From Minisyncoccota bacterium (GTDB lineage: Bacteria; Patescibacteriota; Minisyncoccia; Phycocordibacterales; UBA6065), in assembly GCA_036400935.1 (NCBI GenBank), contig DASWWW010000002.1:63939-127938 (forward strand): a stretch of DNA of 64,000 bases. The letters are read 5' to 3'. Under the pieces are notes generated by a model. That model ran no database searches. It saw only the letters and a program-made list of their open reading frames with translations, and was not told the DNA's origin. Of the stretch, positions 33,091-51,908 are shown one piece after another. Position 1 is the stretch's first letter. Every line of letters starts with the position of its first letter. A program made the position numbers and the translations under genes.

Positions 33091-33540
33091 CTAAAAGCGG
33101 TAATCAAAAAAGAAGGTTCGTTTGCGATGAGGCCGGAGATTGATGGTGATATCCTCGTCCTTCAGCAGCGGCGCCTGCATACGCAGGCCCTTCTTGATAT
33201 TGAATGTGCCCGTTGTATTCAGGAACTTCACCTCACGGACCCCTTGCAGCTGCCGGAATTCGCGAGCGCCGCCGATGAACGTGCCCAGGAACGGGACGTC
33301 CTCGTAGGTAAAGGTGTCCGGCAAAGCGGCGGTTCGACCAATGGTCGGCTCGGAGATCAGGCTGCCCTTGGACTTCTTGGCGAACAGACGATCGAGCTTG
33401 GCCTCGAGGCGGACCCAATCGAGATCGGGCTCCTGCTCGATTTCGGCAAACAAGGGCTCGGGAACGAACAGGGCTTGAGCGAACAGGCCCGACACGAACA
33501 CTGACAGTGCGAGAAACGCTGACAGAACGCGAGCTTTCAT
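33091..33540 (-). CDS. hypothetical secreted protein (signal peptide)
   Basis: MKARVLSAFLALSVFVSGLFAQA signal-like N-terminus. 149 aa. Confidence 0.55.
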   Translation of the reverse strand: MKARVLSAFLALSVFVSGLFAQALFVPEPLFAEIEQEPDLDWVRLEAKLDRLFAKKSKGSLISEPTIGRTAALPDTFTYEDVPFLGTFIGGAREFRQLQGVREVKFLNTTGTFNIKKGLRMQAPLLKDEDITINLRPHRKRTFFFDYRF

Positions 33541-33657
33541 GGGAATAAGAGCGGGAGTTAAGACGCAGTATTGCTTTTCCCAGTATAGTCAGCGGAAAAG
33601 CTAAGTCTAGGAAGGTTGTACACAGGTGATGTTCAGGCAGGTTTTCTTGACGCTTTG

Positions 33658-33730
33658 TGGACCCTACCGGATTCGAACCGGTCGCCTCGTCCATGCCATG
33701 GACGCGCTCTACCGAATGAGCTAAGGGCCC
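33658..33730 (-). tRNA. tRNA-Ala (anticodon GGC)
   Basis: Folded by hand into a cloverleaf: acceptor GGGCCCT/AGGGTCC with G3:U70, anticodon loop AT-GGC-AT, T-loop TTCGAAT, discriminator A. No encoded CCA. Confidence 0.85.
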
Positions 33731-33928: not shown

Positions 33929-35578
33929 ATGACAACAAACGATCTTTCGATCAGATCCCTGCGAAGGCCGTATCAAATGATGGTACTCGCTACCCTCATC
34001 GCGGCGGCTCTCGTGGGATTGCTTTTGATCCCAATCACCAAGGCGGACGCGCAGGAAGCGCCTGCCGACGAGGTGTCGTTCTCTTTCGTCGGTACCACTC
34101 CTAACACGGGCAACCGCGTAGCCGGAGAGAAGATCGACGTTTACTTCCAGGAATCCAGCAATCGAAACGACCTCACCCTTACTTCTTGTACCATTAACGG
34201 CTTGCAGCAGACCGCCCTCCTCAATCTTTCCGGCGGCCTCTACCAGATCGTCTACAACGTAGGCTCGAGCGATGAGGAGCGAAACGCGGGAGCTATCCCG
34301 GTAAACTGTACGTTCCAGACCCCATTGGGCACTACCATTACCGCGACAGCATGGACCGACAACAACATGCTCGGCATCGACAGCAACAGCAACGGCCAGA
34401 TCGACAGCGTGACAGTGCCTTCATTCTCGAACGTCGGAGTCATCCCAACCTCGGGAACCCTCACCACAGGCGATCACCTCGAAATCTTCTTTGACGAGCA
34501 GAATCACCAGAACGACCTTACCCAGGTAGGAGCCTGCTTGGTCAACGGCGTAGACATCGGCGCAATCCAGAACCTCTCGGGCGGACTCTACAAGGGAATC
34601 TACACGGTATCAGCGACTGATACTCCTCGCGAGGCTGGCCAGATCCCAGTAGACTGCAAGCTCGGAAACTCTTCGGGCACCGCACACGCGACAGCCTGGA
34701 CCGACAATAACACCGTAGCGATCGCATTCTCCAACGATGGCGGTAATAGCGGAGGCAACGATGGCAACAACGAAAACGGCACATCTACAGCTTCGACTAC
34801 CCCTACCCTTGGAAACGTCGGCGTAGTCCCATCAACCGGAACCCTCACCACAGGCGACATCCTCGAAGTCTTCTTCAACGAACAGAACCAGATGAACGAC
34901 CTCGTAGCGACCAGCACTTGTACTGTTAACGGCGTGAATATCGCGCCTCTCCAGAACCTTACTGGCGGACTCTACAAGGGAATCTACACCGTCTCAGCAA
35001 CCGACACGCCTCGAACTGCAGGCCAGATACCAGTCGACTGTACCCTGGAGAACGCTTCAGGCTCGATGCGAGCGACAGCATGGACGGACAACAACACCGT
35101 AGCGATCGCTTTTGACGGCGGCAACGGAAATAACGGCGGAAACAATGGCGGCAACAACGGAAACGGTACTTCTACAGCAACGACTACGGACGCAGCTCTC
35201 GCTCTCACCTCTATCTCTCAGTCACAGGGCACCGCTTCAGCGAACGGAAACTATGCTGACGGCTGGAAGTGGGTATTCCATGTCACGGCTCCAAGCAACG
35301 AAACTTCCCTTCAGTTCCGCTTCTCAGACTGGATCAACGGGTCAAACGGAAGCAGCACGATCTCATCGGCTAACAACATCCAAATCTCTTCAGCCCAGTC
35401 CTCTTCAGGAGTCGTCGCGATCACCGGAACAGACATCTACTCGAACGCCCTTACCCTCACAGGCGACCTCGACGCGAACATGCCGGGCCGACAGGTAGAA
35501 GTCCTCGTCGAAATGCGCGTACCGTCAGGATCGACTAACGGCTCGTACTCGACATCGTACGGAATCCGCAGCTACTAA
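33929..35578 (+). CDS. secreted/surface protein with three ~117-127-aa tandem repeats separated by N/G-rich linkers
   Basis: N-terminal signal/TM. Repeats share GVIPxSGTLTTGDxLExFFxEQN…QNLxGGLYKGIYTVSATDTPRxAGQIPVDCxL…ATAWTDNNTVAIAF. Confidence 0.8.
   Translation: MTTNDLSIRSLRRPYQMMVLATLIAAALVGLLLIPITKADAQEAPADEVSFSFVGTTPNTGNRVAGEKIDVYFQESSNRNDLTLTSCTINGLQQTALLNLSGGLYQIVYNVGSSDEERNAGAIPVNCTFQTPLGTTITATAWTDNNMLGIDSNSNGQIDSVTVPSFSNVGVIPTSGTLTTGDHLEIFFDEQNHQNDLTQVGACLVNGVDIGAIQNLSGGLYKGIYTVSATDTPREAGQIPVDCKLGNSSGTAHATAWTDNNTVAIAFSNDGGNSGGNDGNNENGTSTASTTPTLGNVGVVPSTGTLTTGDILEVFFNEQNQMNDLVATSTCTVNGVNIAPLQNLTGGLYKGIYTVSATDTPRTAGQIPVDCTLENASGSMRATAWTDNNTVAIAFDGGNGNNGGNNGGNNGNGTSTATTTDAALALTSISQSQGTASANGNYADGWKWVFHVTAPSNETSLQFRFSDWINGSNGSSTISSANNIQISSAQSSSGVVAITGTDIYSNALTLTGDLDANMPGRQVEVLVEMRVPSGSTNGSYSTSYGIRSY
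34073..35188 (+). repeat. three imperfect direct repeats (~351-381 bp units) inside the surface-protein gene
   Basis: Long near-identical DNA blocks, e.g. ggactctacaagggaatctacac…cctcg appears at ~34578 and ~34963. Confidence 0.75.
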
Positions 35579-35600: not shown

Positions 35601-36173
35601 ATGACCAGACACTTTACAAAGGTAGCCGCGATCACGGTCCTCGCGTCGATCGTCTCGATAACCGCAGGCATCGCTTACGCCTCGGCATCAGAGATCACAG
35701 GCGGAGTCTCGTCTAACCCTCAGGTAGTTGCCGGCTCGCACGCCACAGGCACGATCGCAGGCAATATCGGCCAGAACTCAGCGGCTCCAACGGAAAGCGA
35801 AGAGCTTACCAACACCTCCCGATCGGGCGGAAGGAGCTCGTCGCGAGTCGTGACGACAACCACATCGCCGGCTGACAGCACCTTCATCAGCTTTGCGGGA
35901 ACTGTCGGAGAGGCTGAGTACACCGCTCCCGCCTACGACGATACCGTCCTCGCCGTCAGCGACGATTCTGATCTCGAGACCGTAGTCGAGACTGACGCCG
36001 CCACAGGAAGCGCAGCCATCATCGATGAGGCGATCCAGGAGGATCAGAATACTGACAACCTCGCCGCAGTCGGAGCTCTCGGAGCGATCAACTGGGGCAC
36101 ATGGACGATGATTCTCGTCGGCCTCGTAGCGATCGGGGGAATCGCGTACGGAGTGAACAAGCTCATAGTCTAA
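35601..36173 (+). CDS. hypothetical surface protein with N-terminal signal/TM and C-terminal TM anchor; acidic, S/T-rich middle
   Basis: N-terminus VAAITVLASIVSITAGIAYASA. C-terminus …INWGTWTMILVGLVAIGGIAYGVNKLIV*. Confidence 0.65.
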   Translation: MTRHFTKVAAITVLASIVSITAGIAYASASEITGGVSSNPQVVAGSHATGTIAGNIGQNSAAPTESEELTNTSRSGGRSSSRVVTTTTSPADSTFISFAGTVGEAEYTAPAYDDTVLAVSDDSDLETVVETDAATGSAAIIDEAIQEDQNTDNLAAVGALGAINWGTWTMILVGLVAIGGIAYGVNKLIV

Positions 36174-36181
36174 AAAAATAG

Positions 36182-36237
36182 AAAAAAGGCCGTTCGCACG
36201 TCCAAGTCGGGGAAGGACTAACGAACGGCCTTTTTTC
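36182..36237. terminator. bidirectional terminator (GGCCGTTCG … CGAACGGCC, A6/T6 flanks)
   Basis: Lies between convergent genes. Confidence 0.55.
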
Positions 36238-36243
36238 TATTTC

Positions 36244-37449
36244 CTACTTGGCGATGGGAAGAGTGACCGTGAATATGCTTCCCTTGCCCTCCTTGCTCGT
36301 CGCGGTGACCGTGCCATTATGCGCCTCGGCGATCCACTTTACGATGGCGAGCCCGAGGCCCGTGCCGCCAGTCTCCTTCGATCGCGAGCTCTCGGCTCGG
36401 TAGAAGCGCTCAAAGATATGAGGAAGCGCCTGTGAAGATATGCCGACGCCGTTATCCTTGATGTCGACAGAGACGCTCTTGGCCGTTTTCCTGCCGCTAA
36501 TCCACACATCGCCATTGTCCTTTCCGTAGCGGATGGCGTTAGCAATGATGTTTGAGAAGAGGCGCTCGATATATCGCTCATCCCCATTCAGGTCGGCTAC
36601 AGGCAAGGTCCCGATATGGATCGAAATGCCCCTCTCCCTGGCGAATGCCTGGTGCCTCTTGGCGATGCGGGTAATGAGCTCCTTCGACCTTATGGTGCGA
36701 TTGACTACGGTGCGATGGAATTCCCCGCCCGTCGTGAGCAGGGCGAGATCGGACAGGAGATTGTCGAGATGCATGACCTCATTGTTGATGGCCTTCAGCG
36801 TCTCCTCAACCGACTGCGCGTCCCGTGTTTTTGCATGCAAGGCGAGATCGACGTTGCCCTTGATGATAGCCAGAGGGGTGCGCAATTCGTGCGCGGCGTC
36901 GGCGATGAACTCGAGCTTTACCTTCTCCTGCTTCATGAGAGCCTCCAGGCGGTTAGCCTCTTCCGCTCGCTTTCGCTCGGTCAGGTCTACGTTCACAGCC
37001 ACCGACGCCACGACATTGCCGTTCTCGTCATGGATAGGCGCGCCAACGGCCTCGTGGATCCAGCGCTTGCCGCTCGGCAGCTCCACCTCGATCTCTACGG
37101 GGTCGGTCTGGCGGTTCTCGGCGATAGCCCGCTGCATAGGCATCTCGGCTCCGGTAATCTGCTTGCCGTTTATGAAATGGCGCAGCTTTCGGCCCGCGAC
37201 GTTATCGTCCTTGAGGGCGTCCATAGAGATGTTGTCTCCCTGGCCCATCTCAAGCTTGTTGAGGATGTACGGATTTCCAGTAATGAACTCGCAGGTCGTA
37301 TCGGTCGAGAAGGTAATGCCCACAGGCAGCGCCTTGAGGAGCGCTCGCAGTCGCTGGGCGGAATCCAAAAGCTTCGGCGACTTGTGAATAGTCAGCGCCG
37401 GCTCCATCTGCTTCTCCTTCGTCTTCTTAGATACGGCCTTTTTCTTCAT
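36244..37449 (-). CDS. Sensor histidine kinase (PAS + HisKA + HATPase)
   Basis: H-box AAHELRTPLAIIKGN. G-box …GGTGLGLAIVK…. Confidence 0.88.
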   Translation of the reverse strand: MKKKAVSKKTKEKQMEPALTIHKSPKLLDSAQRLRALLKALPVGITFSTDTTCEFITGNPYILNKLEMGQGDNISMDALKDDNVAGRKLRHFINGKQITGAEMPMQRAIAENRQTDPVEIEVELPSGKRWIHEAVGAPIHDENGNVVASVAVNVDLTERKRAEEANRLEALMKQEKVKLEFIADAAHELRTPLAIIKGNVDLALHAKTRDAQSVEETLKAINNEVMHLDNLLSDLALLTTGGEFHRTVVNRTIRSKELITRIAKRHQAFARERGISIHIGTLPVADLNGDERYIERLFSNIIANAIRYGKDNGDVWISGRKTAKSVSVDIKDNGVGISSQALPHIFERFYRAESSRSKETGGTGLGLAIVKWIAEAHNGTVTATSKEGKGSIFTVTLPIAK

Positions 37450-37472
37450 AAATGATTGATTGGCTGCGGCTG

Positions 37473-38141
37473 TTAGTCGCGCATCGTGTAGCCGACGCCT
37501 CGGACGGTATGGATGAGGGGTTTTGCGCCCTCAGGATCGATCTTGCTGCGGAGATAGCGCATATGGACGTTGAGCTCGTGATTGTTCTCCTTGTATCCGG
37601 GCTCCCAGGCGACATCGACGAGCTGCTGGCGGGTGATCGCCTCGTTCTTATTTCGTATAAGGAGAAAGAGAAGGCGGTATTCCTTTGGAGTGAGCGGGAT
37701 GACCTTGCCTGCGCGCACGACCTCGTGCTTCTTGCCGTCGACGACGAGATCATCGAGCTTGAGGATGATCGGATCGGTCGTCTTGCGCCTGCGGAGGACC
37801 GCTCGGACGCGGGCAAAGATCTCCTCGATGCCGAAAGGCTTCGTAATGTAGTCGTCGGCGCCGGTGTCGAGGCCGTTTACCCGGTCGACGATGGTCGTTC
37901 GAGCCGTAAGCATGATGACTGGCGTATGGACCGACCGCGCGCGGAGCTCCTTGCAGACTTCAAAGCCGTCCTTTTTCGGGAGCATGACGTCAAGGAGGAT
38001 CAATGCGTAGTTTCCGGTGGACGCCATCTCGAGGCCCTTCTCGCCGTCATGCGCCATGTCTACAGAATAATGTTCGCTGGTAAGCGCCTTCTTTAAAATG
38101 TCGGCAAGCTTCTTTTCGTCCTCAATAACTAATATTCTCAT
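37473..38141 (-). CDS. Response regulator, OmpR/PhoB family
   Basis: MRILVIEDE…LILLDVMLP… receiver domain plus winged-helix C-terminus. Confidence 0.9.
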   Translation of the reverse strand: MRILVIEDEKKLADILKKALTSEHYSVDMAHDGEKGLEMASTGNYALILLDVMLPKKDGFEVCKELRARSVHTPVIMLTARTTIVDRVNGLDTGADDYITKPFGIEEIFARVRAVLRRRKTTDPIILKLDDLVVDGKKHEVVRAGKVIPLTPKEYRLLFLLIRNKNEAITRQQLVDVAWEPGYKENNHELNVHMRYLRSKIDPEGAKPLIHTVRGVGYTMRD

Positions 38142-38348
38142 GATTTTAATATTGTACTATAAATTTAACATTTAGCAATAGTGGAAAAAACCTAAGCAGG
38201 GCCTTATATTAAATACATATTAACTCTATCCACCGAGTTATCCACAGTTTTAAGGGTATTGTAGCCCTATCCCGCCTTTACTTAAATCTATATTAAGAAT
38301 ATATTAAACCTACAGGCGGATTTAAAAGGATTAAAGAAACATTAAATT

Positions 38349-38903
38349 ATGACACTAGCAGAGAAAACATACTTTGAGATCCTCTTAAACCAGGCTCACA
38401 CCACATTTAAGAAGGACCTCCAGCGCTATGCCCTATCGAAGATCGGCAACAAGGCATTGAGCGAGGACCTCGTGCAGGACACATTCGTAAAGACTTGGGC
38501 ATACCTCGCCAAGGGCGGAAAGATCCTCTTCATGCGAGCCTTCCTCTACCGAATCCTCAACAACCTCATCGTAGACGAGTACCGCAAGCGAAAGACCGTA
38601 TCCCTCGACGCAATGTTCAATGACGGATTCGAGCCAGCAGTCGACGACGCCGAGGCTCTCATGGACGCAGCGGACGGAAAGCGCGCACTCGAGGTCGTAA
38701 ACGAGCTCCCAGAGAAATACCAGAGCGTCATGAGCATGCGATTCGAGAAGGATATGTCTCTCGAGGAGATCTCAGCTGTCACGGGCCAGTCAAAGAACAG
38801 CATCACTGTCCAGGTCCACCGCGGCCTGAAGAAGATCAAGTCAATCTACGAGAATCGAGATGCACAGTTCGCAGCGCATTTGGGCAACGCAAGCCACGCT
38901 TAA
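38349..38903 (+). CDS. ECF-type sigma-70 family sigma factor
   Basis: Region 2 …LVQDTFVKTWAYL… and region 4 …MSLEEISAVTGQSKNSITVQVHRGLKKIK. Confidence 0.85.
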   Translation: MTLAEKTYFEILLNQAHTTFKKDLQRYALSKIGNKALSEDLVQDTFVKTWAYLAKGGKILFMRAFLYRILNNLIVDEYRKRKTVSLDAMFNDGFEPAVDDAEALMDAADGKRALEVVNELPEKYQSVMSMRFEKDMSLEEISAVTGQSKNSITVQVHRGLKKIKSIYENRDAQFAAHLGNASHA

Positions 38904-49125: not shown

Positions 49126-49785
49126 CTATAATTTCCTTATCGCCTCTACCAATTCTGGAAAATGCTCTACCCTGAAATGCCCGCGATCTTTGAACGTGAC
49201 GAGCTCCGCCTCCGGCATGCCCTTCTTGTAGAGCTTTGCATGCGAGGCGGCGACCACCTTGTCGTCCTCGCTATGATAGATGGCCATCTTGCCCGACTGC
49301 GCTACGAGCTTTTTGAAGAATCCCGGCTTGTCGCTCACGGTAAAGCCCGCGTTCGCGCGCATTCCCGGATGGCCGCTTCCCTTCTTGCCCGGCTTGAAAA
49401 ATGGCGCTGCGACTAGAAACACTCCAGCGATCTTTACCTTTAGTTTGTTCTCGCTCAGGTAGCGGGCAAGGAAAATGCCGCCGAGAGAATGTCCGACAAG
49501 TACCGCGCCGCCATTCCCACCCGTCAGGAACGCTGCCGCCTTTTCAAAAACGACCTTCCACTCCTCATATTTGGCGTCCTCGGGCGAAGGCATCTCCGGC
49601 TGGAACACTTCAAAATTGCCGGCCGCCTTGCCGCCGTTCAGGTCCTCGCCCAGATTGTCCTTCCACCTCTTTGATCGGTCGCGGAAGAGATCCTCGCGTT
49701 TCATCGGCTCCTTCTTGAGGGACGCCAGATATTCCGCGCGAGTGTCGAAGAAATTTCCGCCATGTATTGCGAGCACCTGTTTCAT
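49126..49785 (-). CDS. alpha/beta-fold serine hydrolase (YdeN/RBBP9-like)
   Basis: …AVLVGHSLGGIFLARYL… nucleophile elbow GHSLG. Start overlaps the uvrB stop by 4 nt. Confidence 0.7.
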   Translation of the reverse strand: MKQVLAIHGGNFFDTRAEYLASLKKEPMKREDLFRDRSKRWKDNLGEDLNGGKAAGNFEVFQPEMPSPEDAKYEEWKVVFEKAAAFLTGGNGGAVLVGHSLGGIFLARYLSENKLKVKIAGVFLVAAPFFKPGKKGSGHPGMRANAGFTVSDKPGFFKKLVAQSGKMAIYHSEDDKVVAASHAKLYKKGMPEAELVTFKDRGHFRVEHFPELVEAIRKL

Positions 49786-51908
49786 ATTATTTCATCGCTA
49801 TTCTTATCCTTAGCCGCCTTTTCCTCCGCCTTCTTACCGGAAAGCCTCTTTTTCTTGTCTACCTTGGGCGGCTTTGGCGCTGCTGCATCGAGCTTTTCGT
49901 ACAAGGCCTGGATCTCGTCTCGCAAGAGCGCTGCCGTCTCGAAATCGAGCAACTTGACCGCATCGTTCATCTGGCGCTCCTTCTCGCGGATCAGGGCCTT
50001 TGGATCCTTGGCGAACATGGCCTCGTCGATCTTCAACTGCTCCTTTACGGCCTTCTTGTGCTCGGTCTGCATGTGGTCGGTGATATCCTTGATCGCCTTG
50101 ATGATTGTCTTTGGGGTGATGCCGTGCTTTGCATTGTACGCCTCCTGGATTTTGCGGCGGCGGTTAGTCTCCTTTACAGCGCGCTCGATCGAGCCGGTTA
50201 CCTGATCAGCATAAATAATCACGCGGCCCTCGGCATTTCGCGCGGCGCGGCCGATGATCTGAATGAGCGAGGTCTCCGATCGCAGGAATCCCTCCTTGTC
50301 CGCGTCCAAAATGGCGATCAATGCCACCTCGGGCAAGTCGAGTCCCTCTCGCAAGAGGTTGATACCGACAAGCACGTCGAATTCGCCGCGGCGGAACTTG
50401 GTCAGGATCTCGATTCGGTCGATCGTCTTGATATCGCTATGCAAGTATTCGGACTTGATCTTCCTTTCCTTGAGGTAGTCCACGAGGTCCTCGGCCATCT
50501 TTTTCGTCAGCGTCGTAAGGATGACGCGGAAGCCTGCCTTGATGGTCTTTTCTGCCTCGGCGATAGAGTCGGCGATCTGGCCGGGGAATGGATTCTTCCC
50601 TGCTTTCGTTTCAGTAACCGGCTTTATGGTGACGACCGGATCCAAGAGGCCAGTCGGTCGGATGACCTGCTCCATGATCTGGGTGCTGTTCTCCTTTTCG
50701 TACGCGCCCGGGGTCGCCGACGTATAGACGGTCTGGCCGACGCGCTGCTCAAACTCGCTGAACTGCAGCGGGCGGTTGTCGCGAGCCGACGGCAGGCGGA
50801 ATCCGTGCTCGATCAGGGTGTTCTTGCGGGACTGGTCGCCGGCATACATGCCCCCGATCTGCGGGATGGTCACGTGCGACTCGTCGATGATGGTAAGGAA
50901 GTCAGGCGTGCCGTCTGCCTTGTGCGGGAAGTATGACAAAAGGGTTTCAGGCGCCTCGCCCGGAGCCTTGCCTGCGAAATGGCGCGAATAGTTCTCGATG
51001 CCGTTGCAGTAGCCGACCTCGCGAATCATGGCGAGATCGTAGGTCGTGCGGCGCTTCAGGCGCTCCGCCTCGAGGTTCTTTCCCTCGGACTTGAGCTGCT
51101 CTAGCCGCGCGTCGAGCTCGGCCTTGATCGAGTTGAAGGCGCTCTCGATCTGAGCCTTGTCGGTGATGAAATGCTTTGCCGGAAAGAGGAAGAATACGTC
51201 GAGAGGCTTGAGGAGCGCTCGCGTCACGTGATCGATCTGGTCGATATGGCTCACGACGCCGCCGTCAAAGCTGATGCGGTAGATGACTTTTTCGTTTACG
51301 GGCATGACTTCGATCATGTTTCCGATGGCGCGCATCTGGCCCGGCTCGAGGTCGGCGTTGGTGCGCTCGAAATGGATGCCGACCATGCGGCGGATCATCT
51401 CCATGCGGTCGGCTTTCATGCCGACAGAGACTTTCATATTTACCTTCTCGTATTCTTTCGGCGAGCCGAGACCGTATATGCACGAAACTGATGCCACGAT
51501 GATGACATCCTTTCGCGTAAGCAAGGCTTGAGTCGAGGCATGGCGCAATCGCTCGATCTCCTCGTTGATCATGGCCTCCTTCTCGATATAGGTATCAGTG
51601 ACGGGCATGTACGCCTCCGGCTGGTAGTAGTCGTAGTACGAGACGAAATAATGTACGGCATTCTCTGGGAAGAATTCCGCATACTCCTGGGCGAGCTGCG
51701 CCGCGAGAGTCTTGTTATGCGCGATGACAAGCGTCGGCTTGCCCACCTGAGCGATCACGTTCGCGGCCGTAAAGGTCTTTCCCGAGCCGGTAACGCCCAA
51801 AAGCGTCTGGTGGCGAGCGCCGGACTTTATGCCCTTTACGAGGCCTTCTATGGCCTTTGGCTGGTCTCCTGCGGGCGCAAACCCGTTATGTACCTTGAAT
51901 AATGGCAT
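49782..51908 (-). CDS. uvrB: Excinuclease ABC subunit B
   Basis: …LLGVTGSGKTFTAANVIAQ… helicase motifs. C-terminal UVR domain …ALLRDEIQALYEKL…. Confidence 0.95.
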   Translation of the reverse strand: MPLFKVHNGFAPAGDQPKAIEGLVKGIKSGARHQTLLGVTGSGKTFTAANVIAQVGKPTLVIAHNKTLAAQLAQEYAEFFPENAVHYFVSYYDYYQPEAYMPVTDTYIEKEAMINEEIERLRHASTQALLTRKDVIIVASVSCIYGLGSPKEYEKVNMKVSVGMKADRMEMIRRMVGIHFERTNADLEPGQMRAIGNMIEVMPVNEKVIYRISFDGGVVSHIDQIDHVTRALLKPLDVFFLFPAKHFITDKAQIESAFNSIKAELDARLEQLKSEGKNLEAERLKRRTTYDLAMIREVGYCNGIENYSRHFAGKAPGEAPETLLSYFPHKADGTPDFLTIIDESHVTIPQIGGMYAGDQSRKNTLIEHGFRLPSARDNRPLQFSEFEQRVGQTVYTSATPGAYEKENSTQIMEQVIRPTGLLDPVVTIKPVTETKAGKNPFPGQIADSIAEAEKTIKAGFRVILTTLTKKMAEDLVDYLKERKIKSEYLHSDIKTIDRIEILTKFRRGEFDVLVGINLLREGLDLPEVALIAILDADKEGFLRSETSLIQIIGRAARNAEGRVIIYADQVTGSIERAVKETNRRRKIQEAYNAKHGITPKTIIKAIKDITDHMQTEHKKAVKEQLKIDEAMFAKDPKALIREKERQMNDAVKLLDFETAALLRDEIQALYEKLDAAAPKPPKVDKKKRLSGKKAEEKAAKDKNSDEII

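Follow-up and report, generated by a model that had tools for sequence, protein, structure and literature searches.

How does a secreted protein that carries no anchor of its own become attached to the cell surface? Patescibacteria (CPR) account for a large share of bacterial diversity; to our knowledge, all cultivated members live attached to other microbes, and we know of almost nothing on how they build and mount surface proteins apart from type IV pili. The question is raised by a gene (gene 1) in a 64,000-nucleotide stretch of DNA, referred to here as the window, and by the small gene that follows it (Table 1). The pairing of one domain of the gene 1 product, domain X, with an envelope-anchored partner encoded next door points to a previously unnoticed way of surface attachment in CPR.

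Table 1. Features of the two-gene locus, in window coordinates
Feature	Position	Strand	Basis
Gene 1: secreted repeat protein, signal peptide + three Ig-like repeats + domain X	33929..35578	+	ORF, 549 aa
Predicted Sec signal peptide, aa 1-41	33929..34051	+	basic n-region, hydrophobic core, A-D-A|Q site, read from sequence
Ig-like repeat R1, aa 46-155, most divergent copy; Cys87/Cys127	34064..34393	+	HMM, BLASTP
EF-hand-like loop DSNSNGQID, R1-R2 junction, possible Ca2+ site	34379..34405	+	motif scan
Ig-like repeat R2, aa 161-274; Cys203/Cys243	34409..34750	+	
Gly/Asn/Thr-rich linker, R2 to R3	34751..34792	+	sequence reading; model pLDDT low at linker start
Ig-like repeat R3, aa 289-400; Cys331/Cys371	34793..35128	+	identity to R2
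GGN-rich linker, R3 to domain X	35129..35167	+	sequence reading
Domain X, aa 414-549, conserved C-terminal beta-sandwich	35168..35575	+	alignment, AF2, profile search
Partner gene, 190 aa: signal peptide, mature N-terminus SEITGGV, Gly/Ser/Thr-rich stalk, C-terminal TM helix	35601..36173	+	ORF
Partner motif 1, SEITGGV, directly after predicted A-S-A cleavage site (ASA|SEITGGV)	35688..35708	+	consensus alignment
Partner motif 2, TGTIAGNIG, aligned with second conserved G-phi-x-G-x-phi element of other partners	35745..35771	+	alignment A5
Partner C-terminal TM helix, short tail NKLIV	36093..36155	+	sequence reading
Strong hairpin flanked by A-run and T-run, putative bidirectional terminator	36176..36242	.	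RNA fold

The repeat protein encoded by gene 1

A sequence-only reading of this DNA had placed a surface protein at 33929-35578, and an ATG-to-stop frame occupies exactly these positions. The N-terminal signal or TM segment that it had claimed was recovered as a hydrophobic stretch followed by an A-x-A site (…ITKADA|QEAP), equivalent A-x-A sites are present in the homologues, and the assignment as a secreted or surface protein was supported. Judged from sequence, the signal peptides of both the gene 1 product and its partner should be cleaved. At its other end, the chain finishes in …NGSYSTSYGIRSY, with neither an LPXTG motif nor a C-terminal TM helix, and the protein appears to have no anchor of its own. 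No significant family was found for it in Pfam or NCBIfam. Among its 27 homologues, all those with a named organism derive from Parcubacteria, Paceibacterota or Patescibacteria MAGs. The guess that the organism might be an episymbiont agrees with the record of the partner protein (HEY0908051.1), which stems from a Candidatus Paceibacterota (CPR/Patescibacteria) MAG.

The central part of the protein comprises three repeats. Their number was as claimed, whereas their length came to ~112 aa instead of ~117-127 aa, and the DNA period to 384 nt instead of ~381 bp. Pairwise BLASTP placed the similarity between repeats far beyond chance (E = 8e-59 for R2/R3, 5e-30 for R1/R2 and 1e-29 for R1/R3). R2 and R3, which had been called near-identical, have 71% protein identity and 74% DNA identity, and R1 is 45-47% identical to either of them at the protein level. 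The longest exact run common to R2 and R3 is 26 nt, and their codons differ at 32 of 79 conserved residues. Tandem Repeats Finder reported no long-period tandem array in gene 1, and the repeats have therefore diverged too far to qualify as a tandem repeat in DNA terms.

The suspicion of an Ig-like or beta-sandwich fold held, as the model of each repeat is an Ig-like beta-sandwich (pLDDT 95), and the units are all-beta sandwiches of ~100 aa with structural similarity to known Ig-like domains, as expected of the Ig-like / E-set fold. At the sequence level, none of the Pfam bacterial Ig-like families (Big_1, Big_3, Bact_surface_Ig-like etc.) matched the gene 1 protein at E<=1, and the homologues gave sub-threshold or summed partial matches only. 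The repeats have a signature of their own, in which two invariant Cys at a spacing of 40 residues are joined by the segments G-L-Y-K-V-x-Y-T-V and F-T-D-x-N-T. In their alignment, the columns that are invariant or nearly so hold C, N, P, G, Y and D, and none holds His or Met. The Cys pair of each repeat probably forms a disulfide. GGN linkers had been described between the repeats, and these do follow R2 and R3; the R1-R2 junction, in contrast, is not GGN-rich and carries the EF-hand-like loop DSNSNGQID, whose motif makes Ca2+ binding possible. A motif scan found 31 such loops among the 124 repeats of the family, and homologues show weak EF-hand_5 matches at the position equivalent to this junction. 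A 12-nt micro-repeat lies at 35125-35160.

Domain X and the downstream partner gene

The ~130-aa tail behind the repeats had been described as S/T/N-rich. Its composition is indeed rich in S, G, N and T, yet it is not a low-complexity region but a conserved folded domain. No other part of the gene 1 protein is as widely conserved or as informative as this domain X, which the sequence-only reading overlooked. On its own, domain X was modelled by AF2 as a beta-sandwich with a pLDDT of 93; an alignment of 28 sequences contains 14 invariant columns, and no sequence match was found in Pfam, NCBIfam or PDB. A single-sequence query with a word index returned 5 proteins, and an index-free profile search raised this to 787 cluster representatives with E<=1e-3, of which 407 reached E<=1e-30. 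All carriers with a named source belong to Patescibacteria. The domain forms the extreme C-terminus in 161 of 162 members, which range from 133 to 1704 aa and contain TIG, Big_1, Big_5, HYR, Ice_binding, PKD, or nothing recognisable in their N-terminal parts. Residues 414-548 of the window protein match the family profile (A1) with 193 bits (E = 2e-58). The conserved blocks of this profile are G-W, T-V-P-x-x-E, K-F-x-D-W, N-x-R-I-S-S-x-Q, P-G-R-Q and N-G-S-Y-x-T-x-Y-G, the conserved Trp residues standing in G-W-x-W/Y and D-W contexts.

Likewise missed was the link to the next gene, which is separated from gene 1 by a gap of 22 nt, with no terminator-like site found in it, and which appears to form one two-gene operon with gene 1. 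The hairpin behind the partner gene (dG -36.6 kcal/mol, z -7.1; as stable a fold in 0 of 200 shuffles) would close both this operon and a convergent histidine-kinase gene; G6PD, a tRNA, a histidine kinase, a response regulator and a sigma factor are the neighbours of the locus. For the partner protein, no significant family was detected in Pfam or NCBIfam, and a weak PID-CTERM hit (E 0.62) was dismissed as noise. Across 27 distinct partners, the first motif has the consensus S-E-V-T-G-T-L, with Gly5 invariant in 27/27, and the window partner departs from it by having Gly where Thr is usual. The far ends of the partners vary between a TM helix, present in the window and equivalently at five other loci (L002, L004, L006, L009 and L042), PG_binding_1 (E 6e-29), SH3_3 (2e-24) and Dockerin_1 (8e-9). 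TM-type partners contain 2-3 copies of the motif each.

A 6-sequence domain X alignment retrieved 3 genome and 38 metagenome loci. At all five close-homologue loci, an ORF of 209-249 aa without Pfam hits lies 3-27 bp downstream (that of L003 is 149 aa, ended by the contig end). Among 48 loci with an X gene, the partner-motif HMM matched directly downstream in 41; two of the remaining seven lack DNA downstream, and at the other five a divergent or split partner was recognised by eye. Every informative locus, that is, with downstream DNA present, thus has a small secreted partner directly after the X gene (46/46), and the mature N-terminus of this partner is conserved across X loci (S-E-V/I-T-G-T-L...). 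The window fits this pattern: the gene downstream of gene 1 combines a signal peptide with an S-E-V/I-T/S-G-T-L-type mature N-terminus. Elsewhere in 325 kb of six-frame ORFs, the partner-motif HMM had no significant match. In the reverse direction, a profile of the partner N-terminus retrieved just 7 short fragments, and the two that were used for a synteny test both sit directly downstream of an X gene. The pairing also holds in Saccharibacteria (L008, L009), some of which are genetically tractable; X is N-terminal in its protein there. Our search of the literature on the motifs and on similar systems in Patescibacteria returned nothing describing this cassette. SEML1_0315, an essential dockerin protein of Southlakia (Cell 2023), was considered as a partner-type protein and rejected, being a 927-aa monocistronic Ig-like protein. 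Paired alignments of X and partner showed clade-level co-variation, partners of the ST[FY]xGT type occurring together with an X that has an insertion; because it is confounded by phylogeny, this co-variation was not used.

Proposed attachment mechanism and alternative readings

We propose that the two-gene operon builds a surface appendage of Candidatus Paceibacterota, in which the partner tethers the X-bearing protein by binding domain X, and we regard this as probable, if by no great measure. The gene 1 product would be exported by the Sec pathway and would present three disulfide-stabilised Ig-like domains in a row with domain X at the end, one of its junctions being Ca-loop-like and two being flexible GGN linkers. 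The gene 2 product would be a type I membrane protein held by its C-terminal helix, and its cleavage would place the N-terminus SEITGGV…TGTIAGNIG at the tip of a disordered Gly/Ser/Thr-rich stalk of ~130 aa. Domain X would then bind the conserved N-terminal peptide of the partner (SEITGGV type; SEITGGVSSNPQVVAGSHATGTIAGNIG), which would tether the Ig-repeat protein to the envelope and let the repeats project outward with R1 as the distal tip. We infer the physical binding of domain X to the partner; a tight synteny of the two can also reflect co-function without direct binding. The likeliest mode of contact would be a beta-strand added to the X sandwich or inserted in it, by analogy with the AlphaFold prediction for WxL/WxLIP, so that the partner possibly donates a strand. 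Standing against such a donation is the confident model of domain X alone, which has no obvious need for a further strand. The departure of the window partner from the motif consensus also speaks against the proposal, as does the want of a significant match between the partner-motif HMM and the G-x-V-x-G-G segment found ahead of X in many members.

Only tentatively, and with some doubt, do we extend this to an undescribed display system widespread in Patescibacteria, into which dozens to hundreds of surface proteins would plug by strand complementation of domain X with S-E-V-T-G-T-L-tipped partners, the interchangeable far end of the adaptor deciding where on the envelope, or on a scaffold or a host wall, they are mounted. 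If true, domain X would serve as a sequence tag or handle that lists the displayed surface proteins of CPR genomes, and hence much of their surface proteome; the contact would be a concrete peptide-domain interaction that could be blocked or exploited for display; and the cassette would be a second, independent case of anchoring through a partner strand, the logic put forward for the WxL proteins of Firmicutes. The displayed passengers would include large Ig-rich candidate host-attachment proteins, and an adhesin or host-attachment role is plausible for the gene 1 protein as well. With this mechanism, gene 1 would change from a 'repetitive adhesin-like ORF' to a 'passenger of a two-component display cassette'.

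Domain X might instead be a lectin- or CBM-like module with direct affinity for the cell wall or for a glycan, of its own cell or of the host, with the neighbour as a co-expressed but independently anchored surface component. Its confident folding in isolation suits this idea, as does the reported peptidoglycan binding of WxL domains, the closest analogue. However, direct glycan binding leaves unexplained why the N-terminus of the neighbour is conserved beside freely swapped TM, PG-binding, SH3b and dockerin modules, and why the pairing survives when X sits at the protein N-terminus; given also that no CBM family matched the sequence, we consider it unlikely. Less likely again is a fibre or pilus in which X proteins are joined head-to-tail through donor-strand exchange, a mode of assembly known from TasA, chaperone-usher pilins and archaeal cannulae; the partner would then act as a TapA-like initiator and anchor bound to the membrane or wall. 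The fold matches do include many donor-strand-complemented pilins, CanX and the TasA fibre. Moreover, as in the TasA/TapA fibres of Bacillus, archaeal AbpA/AbpB and chaperone-usher pilins, which rely on donor-strand complementation (PMC9245690), a beta-sandwich subunit is accompanied by a neighbour gene whose product has a free mature N-terminal strand thought to complement, anchor or initiate. In half of the X proteins, a phi-x-G-x-phi-x-G segment stands just ahead of domain X and forms a strand in the AF2 model. The window protein, in contrast, has no such G-x-V-x-G-G segment ahead of its domain X. Compared with this cis segment, the partner-motif HMM gave weak hits that were ~4-fold enriched there, with no significant match, and therefore no cis/trans strand exchange is claimed. 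Unlike TasA and the pilins, domain X is a terminal module on large multidomain proteins and not a whole subunit, with varied N-terminal parts (up to 1,550 aa) that are atypical of pilins; no PF12389 or fimbrial family matched, and the operon has no chaperone, usher or SipW-like gene.

Some existing annotations of homologues would make the gene 1 protein a periplasmic protein of the CopC type, active in copper binding or copper resistance: most homologues carry precomputed PF04234 tags and JGI names P0016 'methionine-rich copper-binding protein CopC'. Conserved His/Met copper ligands are the defining feature of the CopC family, whereas the 355 repeat residues include 3 His and 3 Met, neither of them in the (nearly) invariant columns. 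Moreover, Pfam CopC did not match the window protein at E<=1, the NCBIfam score was 15 bits against a cut-off of 95, and the score of the homologues is a sum of partial matches at profile positions ~36-92, of which no single stretch passes. The multidomain architecture with domain X is likewise unlike the single-domain CopC. With neither a full-length match nor the His/Met ligands, membership of CopC (PF04234 / NF033814) was rejected as very improbable, which corrects misleading annotations of the homologues. As for the repeats themselves, the sequence-only reading had feared a collapse or expansion of the array during assembly, the chance of which we regard as practically negligible. The units differ at 26% of their DNA positions and have at most 26 identical bases in common, too little to mislead an assembler; the identical protein is found on 10 Logan contigs (one displayed, the other nine given as similar places), the partner also on 10 contigs, the longest of 295 kb, and three-repeat homologues of the same architecture are present in other MAGs. 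Nor did the gene prove to be recombination- and length-variation-prone, as had been suggested, since its units are diverged to this extent and all recovered copies of the protein are identical. Copy number does vary across homologues, from 1 to 9. Because 79 of 85 family repeats have their nearest relative in another protein, the arrays are old and not churning.

Relation to known surface systems

The proposed display cassette resembles the WxL/WxLIP (Csc) clusters of Lactobacillales and Bacillales, a surface-protein system (PMC10599100; PMC1534035) for which AlphaFold predicts that a strand of the partner inserts into and completes a beta-sandwich (PMC10599100). Like WxL, domain X is a non-LPXTG C-terminal domain of large secreted proteins with varied N-terminal domains, and the partner from the adjoining gene is anchored through a TM helix at its C-terminus. 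Unlike WxL, the domain X system gives no Pfam match to WxL, DUF916 or DUF3324 and lacks Trp-x-Leu motifs; a WxL match was found neither in the window protein at E<=1 nor among the 85 family members. Domain X is also smaller (~130 aa) than WxL, which spans 160-190 aa with two Trp-x-Leu motifs, and it occurs in Patescibacteria, whereas WxL occurs in Firmicutes. WxLIP consists of two Ig-like domains in a DUF916-DUF3324-TM arrangement; the X partner, in contrast, is anchored without DUF916 or DUF3324, presents a short, conserved peptide at its N-terminus, carried by a disordered stalk or a CHB_HEX domain, and has an interchangeable attachment module (TM, PG_binding_1, SH3b, dockerin).

In its stalk of tandem ~100-110-aa Ig-like beta-sandwiches with variable copy number (1-9 here), the gene 1 protein is similar to fibrillar adhesins such as invasin, intimin, FdeC and Gram-positive MSCRAMM-type stalks. 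It differs from them in that its repeat stays below the threshold of every Pfam Big family and bears its own signature, in that it has no recognisable ligand-binding head, and in that anchoring involves neither a beta-barrel nor LPXTG. With the cohesin-dockerin pairs of the cellulosome type, the cassette would share a modular, non-covalent attachment between a beta-sandwich receptor and a short partner module, although domain X is not detectable as a cohesin (Foldseek E ~0.1, TM ~0.3). Many X partners carry Dockerin_1 at their far end, opposite the conserved motif, whereas the window partner has a TM helix instead.

The repeat protein and its family

The open reading frame lay exactly where the sequence-only reading had placed it, and a profile built from the protein's own repeats recovered the three proposed Ig-like units at aa 46-155 (R1), 161-274 (R2) and 289-400 (R3). 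The repeats themselves are thus real, but calling the second and third near-identical was an overstatement: R2 and R3 are 71% identical in protein (pairwise BLASTP, E 8e-59) and 74% in DNA, and R1 shares 45-47% identity with either (E ~1e-29). The Asn/Gly-rich spacers were found as GGN-rich linkers after R2 and R3 but not at the R1-R2 junction, which holds an EF-hand-like loop, DSNSNGQID. Its pattern recurs at 31 inter-repeat junctions in a set of 124 repeats of the family and may bind Ca2+ and thereby make some junctions stiffer, the GGN linkers remaining flexible. The six cysteines, two per repeat and spaced 40 residues apart, would fit an extracellular location with one disulfide per domain; two Cys and one Asn are invariant across 69 aligned units. 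The protein matched no significant family in Pfam or NCBIfam.

A search of 5.8 billion proteins returned 27 relatives, those with a named organism all deriving from Parcubacteria, Paceibacterota or Patescibacteria MAGs. They carry 1-6 copies of the repeat, and up to 9 were counted in a wider sample, so that copy number does shift over evolutionary time, as the proposal of a length-variable gene implied, but there was no sign of a recombination hot spot. Against hypervariability speak the divergence of the R2 and R3 DNA (start-to-start spacing 384 nt), whose longest common run of identical bases is 26 nt, and the fact that 79 of 85 family repeats are closest to a repeat of another protein. Given the latter, the arrays are old and their repeats have stayed recognisable by position; the R2/R3 pair of the window protein is one of the few lineage-specific duplications. 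Different codons are used at 32 of the 79 residues conserved between these two repeats, and Tandem Repeats Finder reported no long-period array in the gene. An assembly artefact was excluded, as 10 Logan contigs encode exactly this repeat protein and the product of the downstream gene is recorded on 10 contigs (longest 295 kb; HEY0908051.1, NCBI MAG named Candidatus Paceibacterota bacterium). The four-repeat homologue P0016 (714 aa) bears the JGI name 'methionine-rich copper-binding protein CopC', and many homologues a PF04234 tag; both are probably mis-annotations, based on summed partial matches.

A C-terminal domain paired with the next gene

The stretch first taken for an S/T/N-rich tail is a conserved folded domain, hereafter domain X (aa 414-549), modelled by AlphaFold2 as a beta-sandwich with a pLDDT of 93. 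In all 27 relatives these last ~135 residues align well (14 invariant columns; mean column identity 59%), and three of the relatives (P0025-P0027) share them while their N-terminal regions are wholly different. Among 1.84 billion cluster representatives, profile searching found domain X in 787 proteins at E<=1e-3 and in 407 at E<=1e-30. In 161 of 162 examined members, ranging from 133 to 1704 aa, it stops at most a few residues short of the C-terminus; the window-type repeat is present in only 38 of the 162, and the others carry TIG, Big_1, Big_5, HYR, Ice_binding, Big_12/13, PKD or no recognisable domain. Searches of Pfam, NCBIfam and PDB sequences gave no match to domain X, and its structural matches were weak (all TM-score <=0.46), comprising CBM32, Pyrodictium CanX, the TasA fibre, type II cohesins and the donor-strand-complemented pilins CssA/B, CS17, SafD, Caf1, CfaB, FimA and PapA.

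Directly downstream of the X gene lies a gene for a small secreted protein, the partner. This arrangement was present in all five close-homologue loci examined (gaps 3-27 bp). Further loci were gathered by domain X alone, three from GTDB genomes (two Saccharibacteria) and 38 from metagenomes; where these extend downstream, the next gene almost without exception encodes a signal peptide and a conserved mature N-terminus. The consensus, S-E-V-T-G-T-L-(T/N)-T-G-V-x-T-G-V-E-G-x-V, is preceded by an A-x-A site, and none of the 27 distinct sequences departs from its Gly5. When 49 loci (325 kb) were scanned in six frames with a motif HMM, 48 contained an X gene, 41 of these had a motif match directly downstream, and no significant match lay elsewhere; of the remaining seven, two end without downstream DNA and five have divergent or split partners recognisable by eye. 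Conversely, both proteins retrieved via the partner motif sit directly downstream of an X gene, and the gene of a randomly picked X protein of 1704 aa is likewise followed by a partner gene. Tail domain and next gene are a conserved two-gene module, whose source-named members are all patescibacterial. In Saccharibacteria, domain X stands at the protein N-terminus with the pairing retained, which argues for an autonomous module and against a C-terminal sorting signal. At one locus (L049, 1056-1645) the partner gene is broken in two, one part of 44 aa (signal peptide and motif) and one of 138 aa (CHB_HEX and dockerin); either a sequencing error produced a frameshift or stop, or the gene is a pseudogene.

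Following the N-terminal peptide, partners often contain CHB_HEX_C_1 and then a variable terminal module: a TM helix (window, L002, L004, L006, L009, L042), PG_binding_1 (E 6e-29), bacterial SH3 domains (2e-24) or Dockerin_1 (8e-9), all of which are attachment modules. The window partner comprises a signal peptide, SEITGGV immediately behind an A-S-A site, a low-complexity region rich in Gly, Ser and Thr, and a C-terminal TM helix; TM-type partners of window-type repeat proteins have two or three motif copies. Dockerin_1 ends most metagenomic partners (L017-L041, L050), and dockerin-ended partners would imply a putative cohesin-like receptor in these Patescibacteria or on hosts. At L019, L027, L029 and L030 the mature N-terminus is ST[FY]xGT instead of SEVTGT, and the X domains paired with it carry six additional residues (…N-E-x-x-S-T-G…) in their first loop, which may reflect either co-variation or merely a common clade.

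A putative surface-display mechanism

On the most likely reading, the two-gene module serves to mount a variety of surface proteins on the cell envelope. The window X protein has neither an LPXTG motif nor a C-terminal helix, and hence no anchor of its own. Since the partner combines a conserved tip with interchangeable anchors, the simplest reading is that the tip peptide interacts with domain X and the partner thereby ties the X protein to the envelope; in that case the Ig-like repeats would extend outward from there, the divergent R1 being farthest out. We consider anchoring by the partner slightly more probable than not. As binding mode we favour beta-strand addition or insertion, suggested by the motif's beta-strand-like alternation, by hints of a pilin-like and cohesin-like fold and by the precedent of WxL/WxLIP, for which AlphaFold predicts that a gap in the C-terminal WxL sandwich is occupied by a strand of the TM-anchored partner (PMC10599100). 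Strand insertion specifically, however, deserves less confidence than anchoring, given that domain X models well without the partner and that the fold matches are weak. In half of the X family a G-x-V-x-G-G segment precedes domain X; its likeness to the partner motif was not significant when compared.

The cassette is proposed to work similarly to WxL/WxLIP but lacks WxL motifs and Pfam WxL, DUF916 or DUF3324 matches, and it is like TasA/TapA and chaperone-usher systems only in its proposed logic and weak fold similarity. Searching the literature for the motifs and for similar patescibacterial systems turned up no description of the pair. Neither the libraries nor the literature that were searched contain the module; two-component non-covalent surface display itself is already known. 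The repeat stalk of the window protein resembles those of fibrillar adhesins, and the protein is a plausible candidate adhesin. In Paceibacterales parasitising methanogens, extracellular Ig-like and PG-binding proteins are reported to be highly expressed (PMC10936435).

Operon and neighbouring genes

X gene and partner gene look like one operon, as the gap between them is short and held no terminator-like site, and a very stable hairpin follows the second gene. This hairpin is probably a bidirectional terminator; the consensus terminator scan did not report it, as its central loop exceeds the length permitted there.

Features of the repeat-protein locus and other calls in the window
Feature	Position	Strand	Remarks
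149-aa ORF	33091-33540	-	upstream of repeat gene; N-terminal signal-peptide-like segment; no Pfam match
tRNA-Ala(ggc)	33657-33730		between 149-aa ORF and repeat gene
Repeat-protein (X) gene	33929-35578	+	ATG start; 549 aa
Junction loop DSNSNGQID	34379-34405 (aa 151-159)	+	R1-R2 junction; fits D-x-N-x-[DN]-G-x-I-D, EF-hand or dockerin type
Partner gene	35601-36173	+	190-aa ORF, 22 nt after repeat gene
Hairpin	36176-36242		between partner gene (+) and convergent histidine-kinase gene (-); A-run and T-run flanks; dG -36.6 kcal/mol, z -7.1
PAS histidine kinase, OmpR-type response regulator, ECF-like sigma-70 factor	36244-38903	kinase gene -	adjoin operon
tRNA-Leu(cag) call	51021-51096	+	ARAGORN; within 708-aa ORF 49782-51908 (-)

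The operon and the adjoining kinase, regulator and sigma-factor genes may have a regulatory link. Two-component or sigma-factor genes also occur near other X genes (L048 225-1697, L004 591-1217, L002 1-351), inconsistently across loci. In Southlakia epibionticum, a tRNA, a response regulator and a PAS kinase are neighbours of SEML1_0315, an essential surface protein of Ig-like type. The tRNA-Leu(cag) call is probably a false positive: at the gathering threshold, Rfam returned only two tRNA-Ala genes in the window and no tRNA-Leu at this site. The Logan copy of the locus (L001) likewise has a gene call for the 149-aa ORF.
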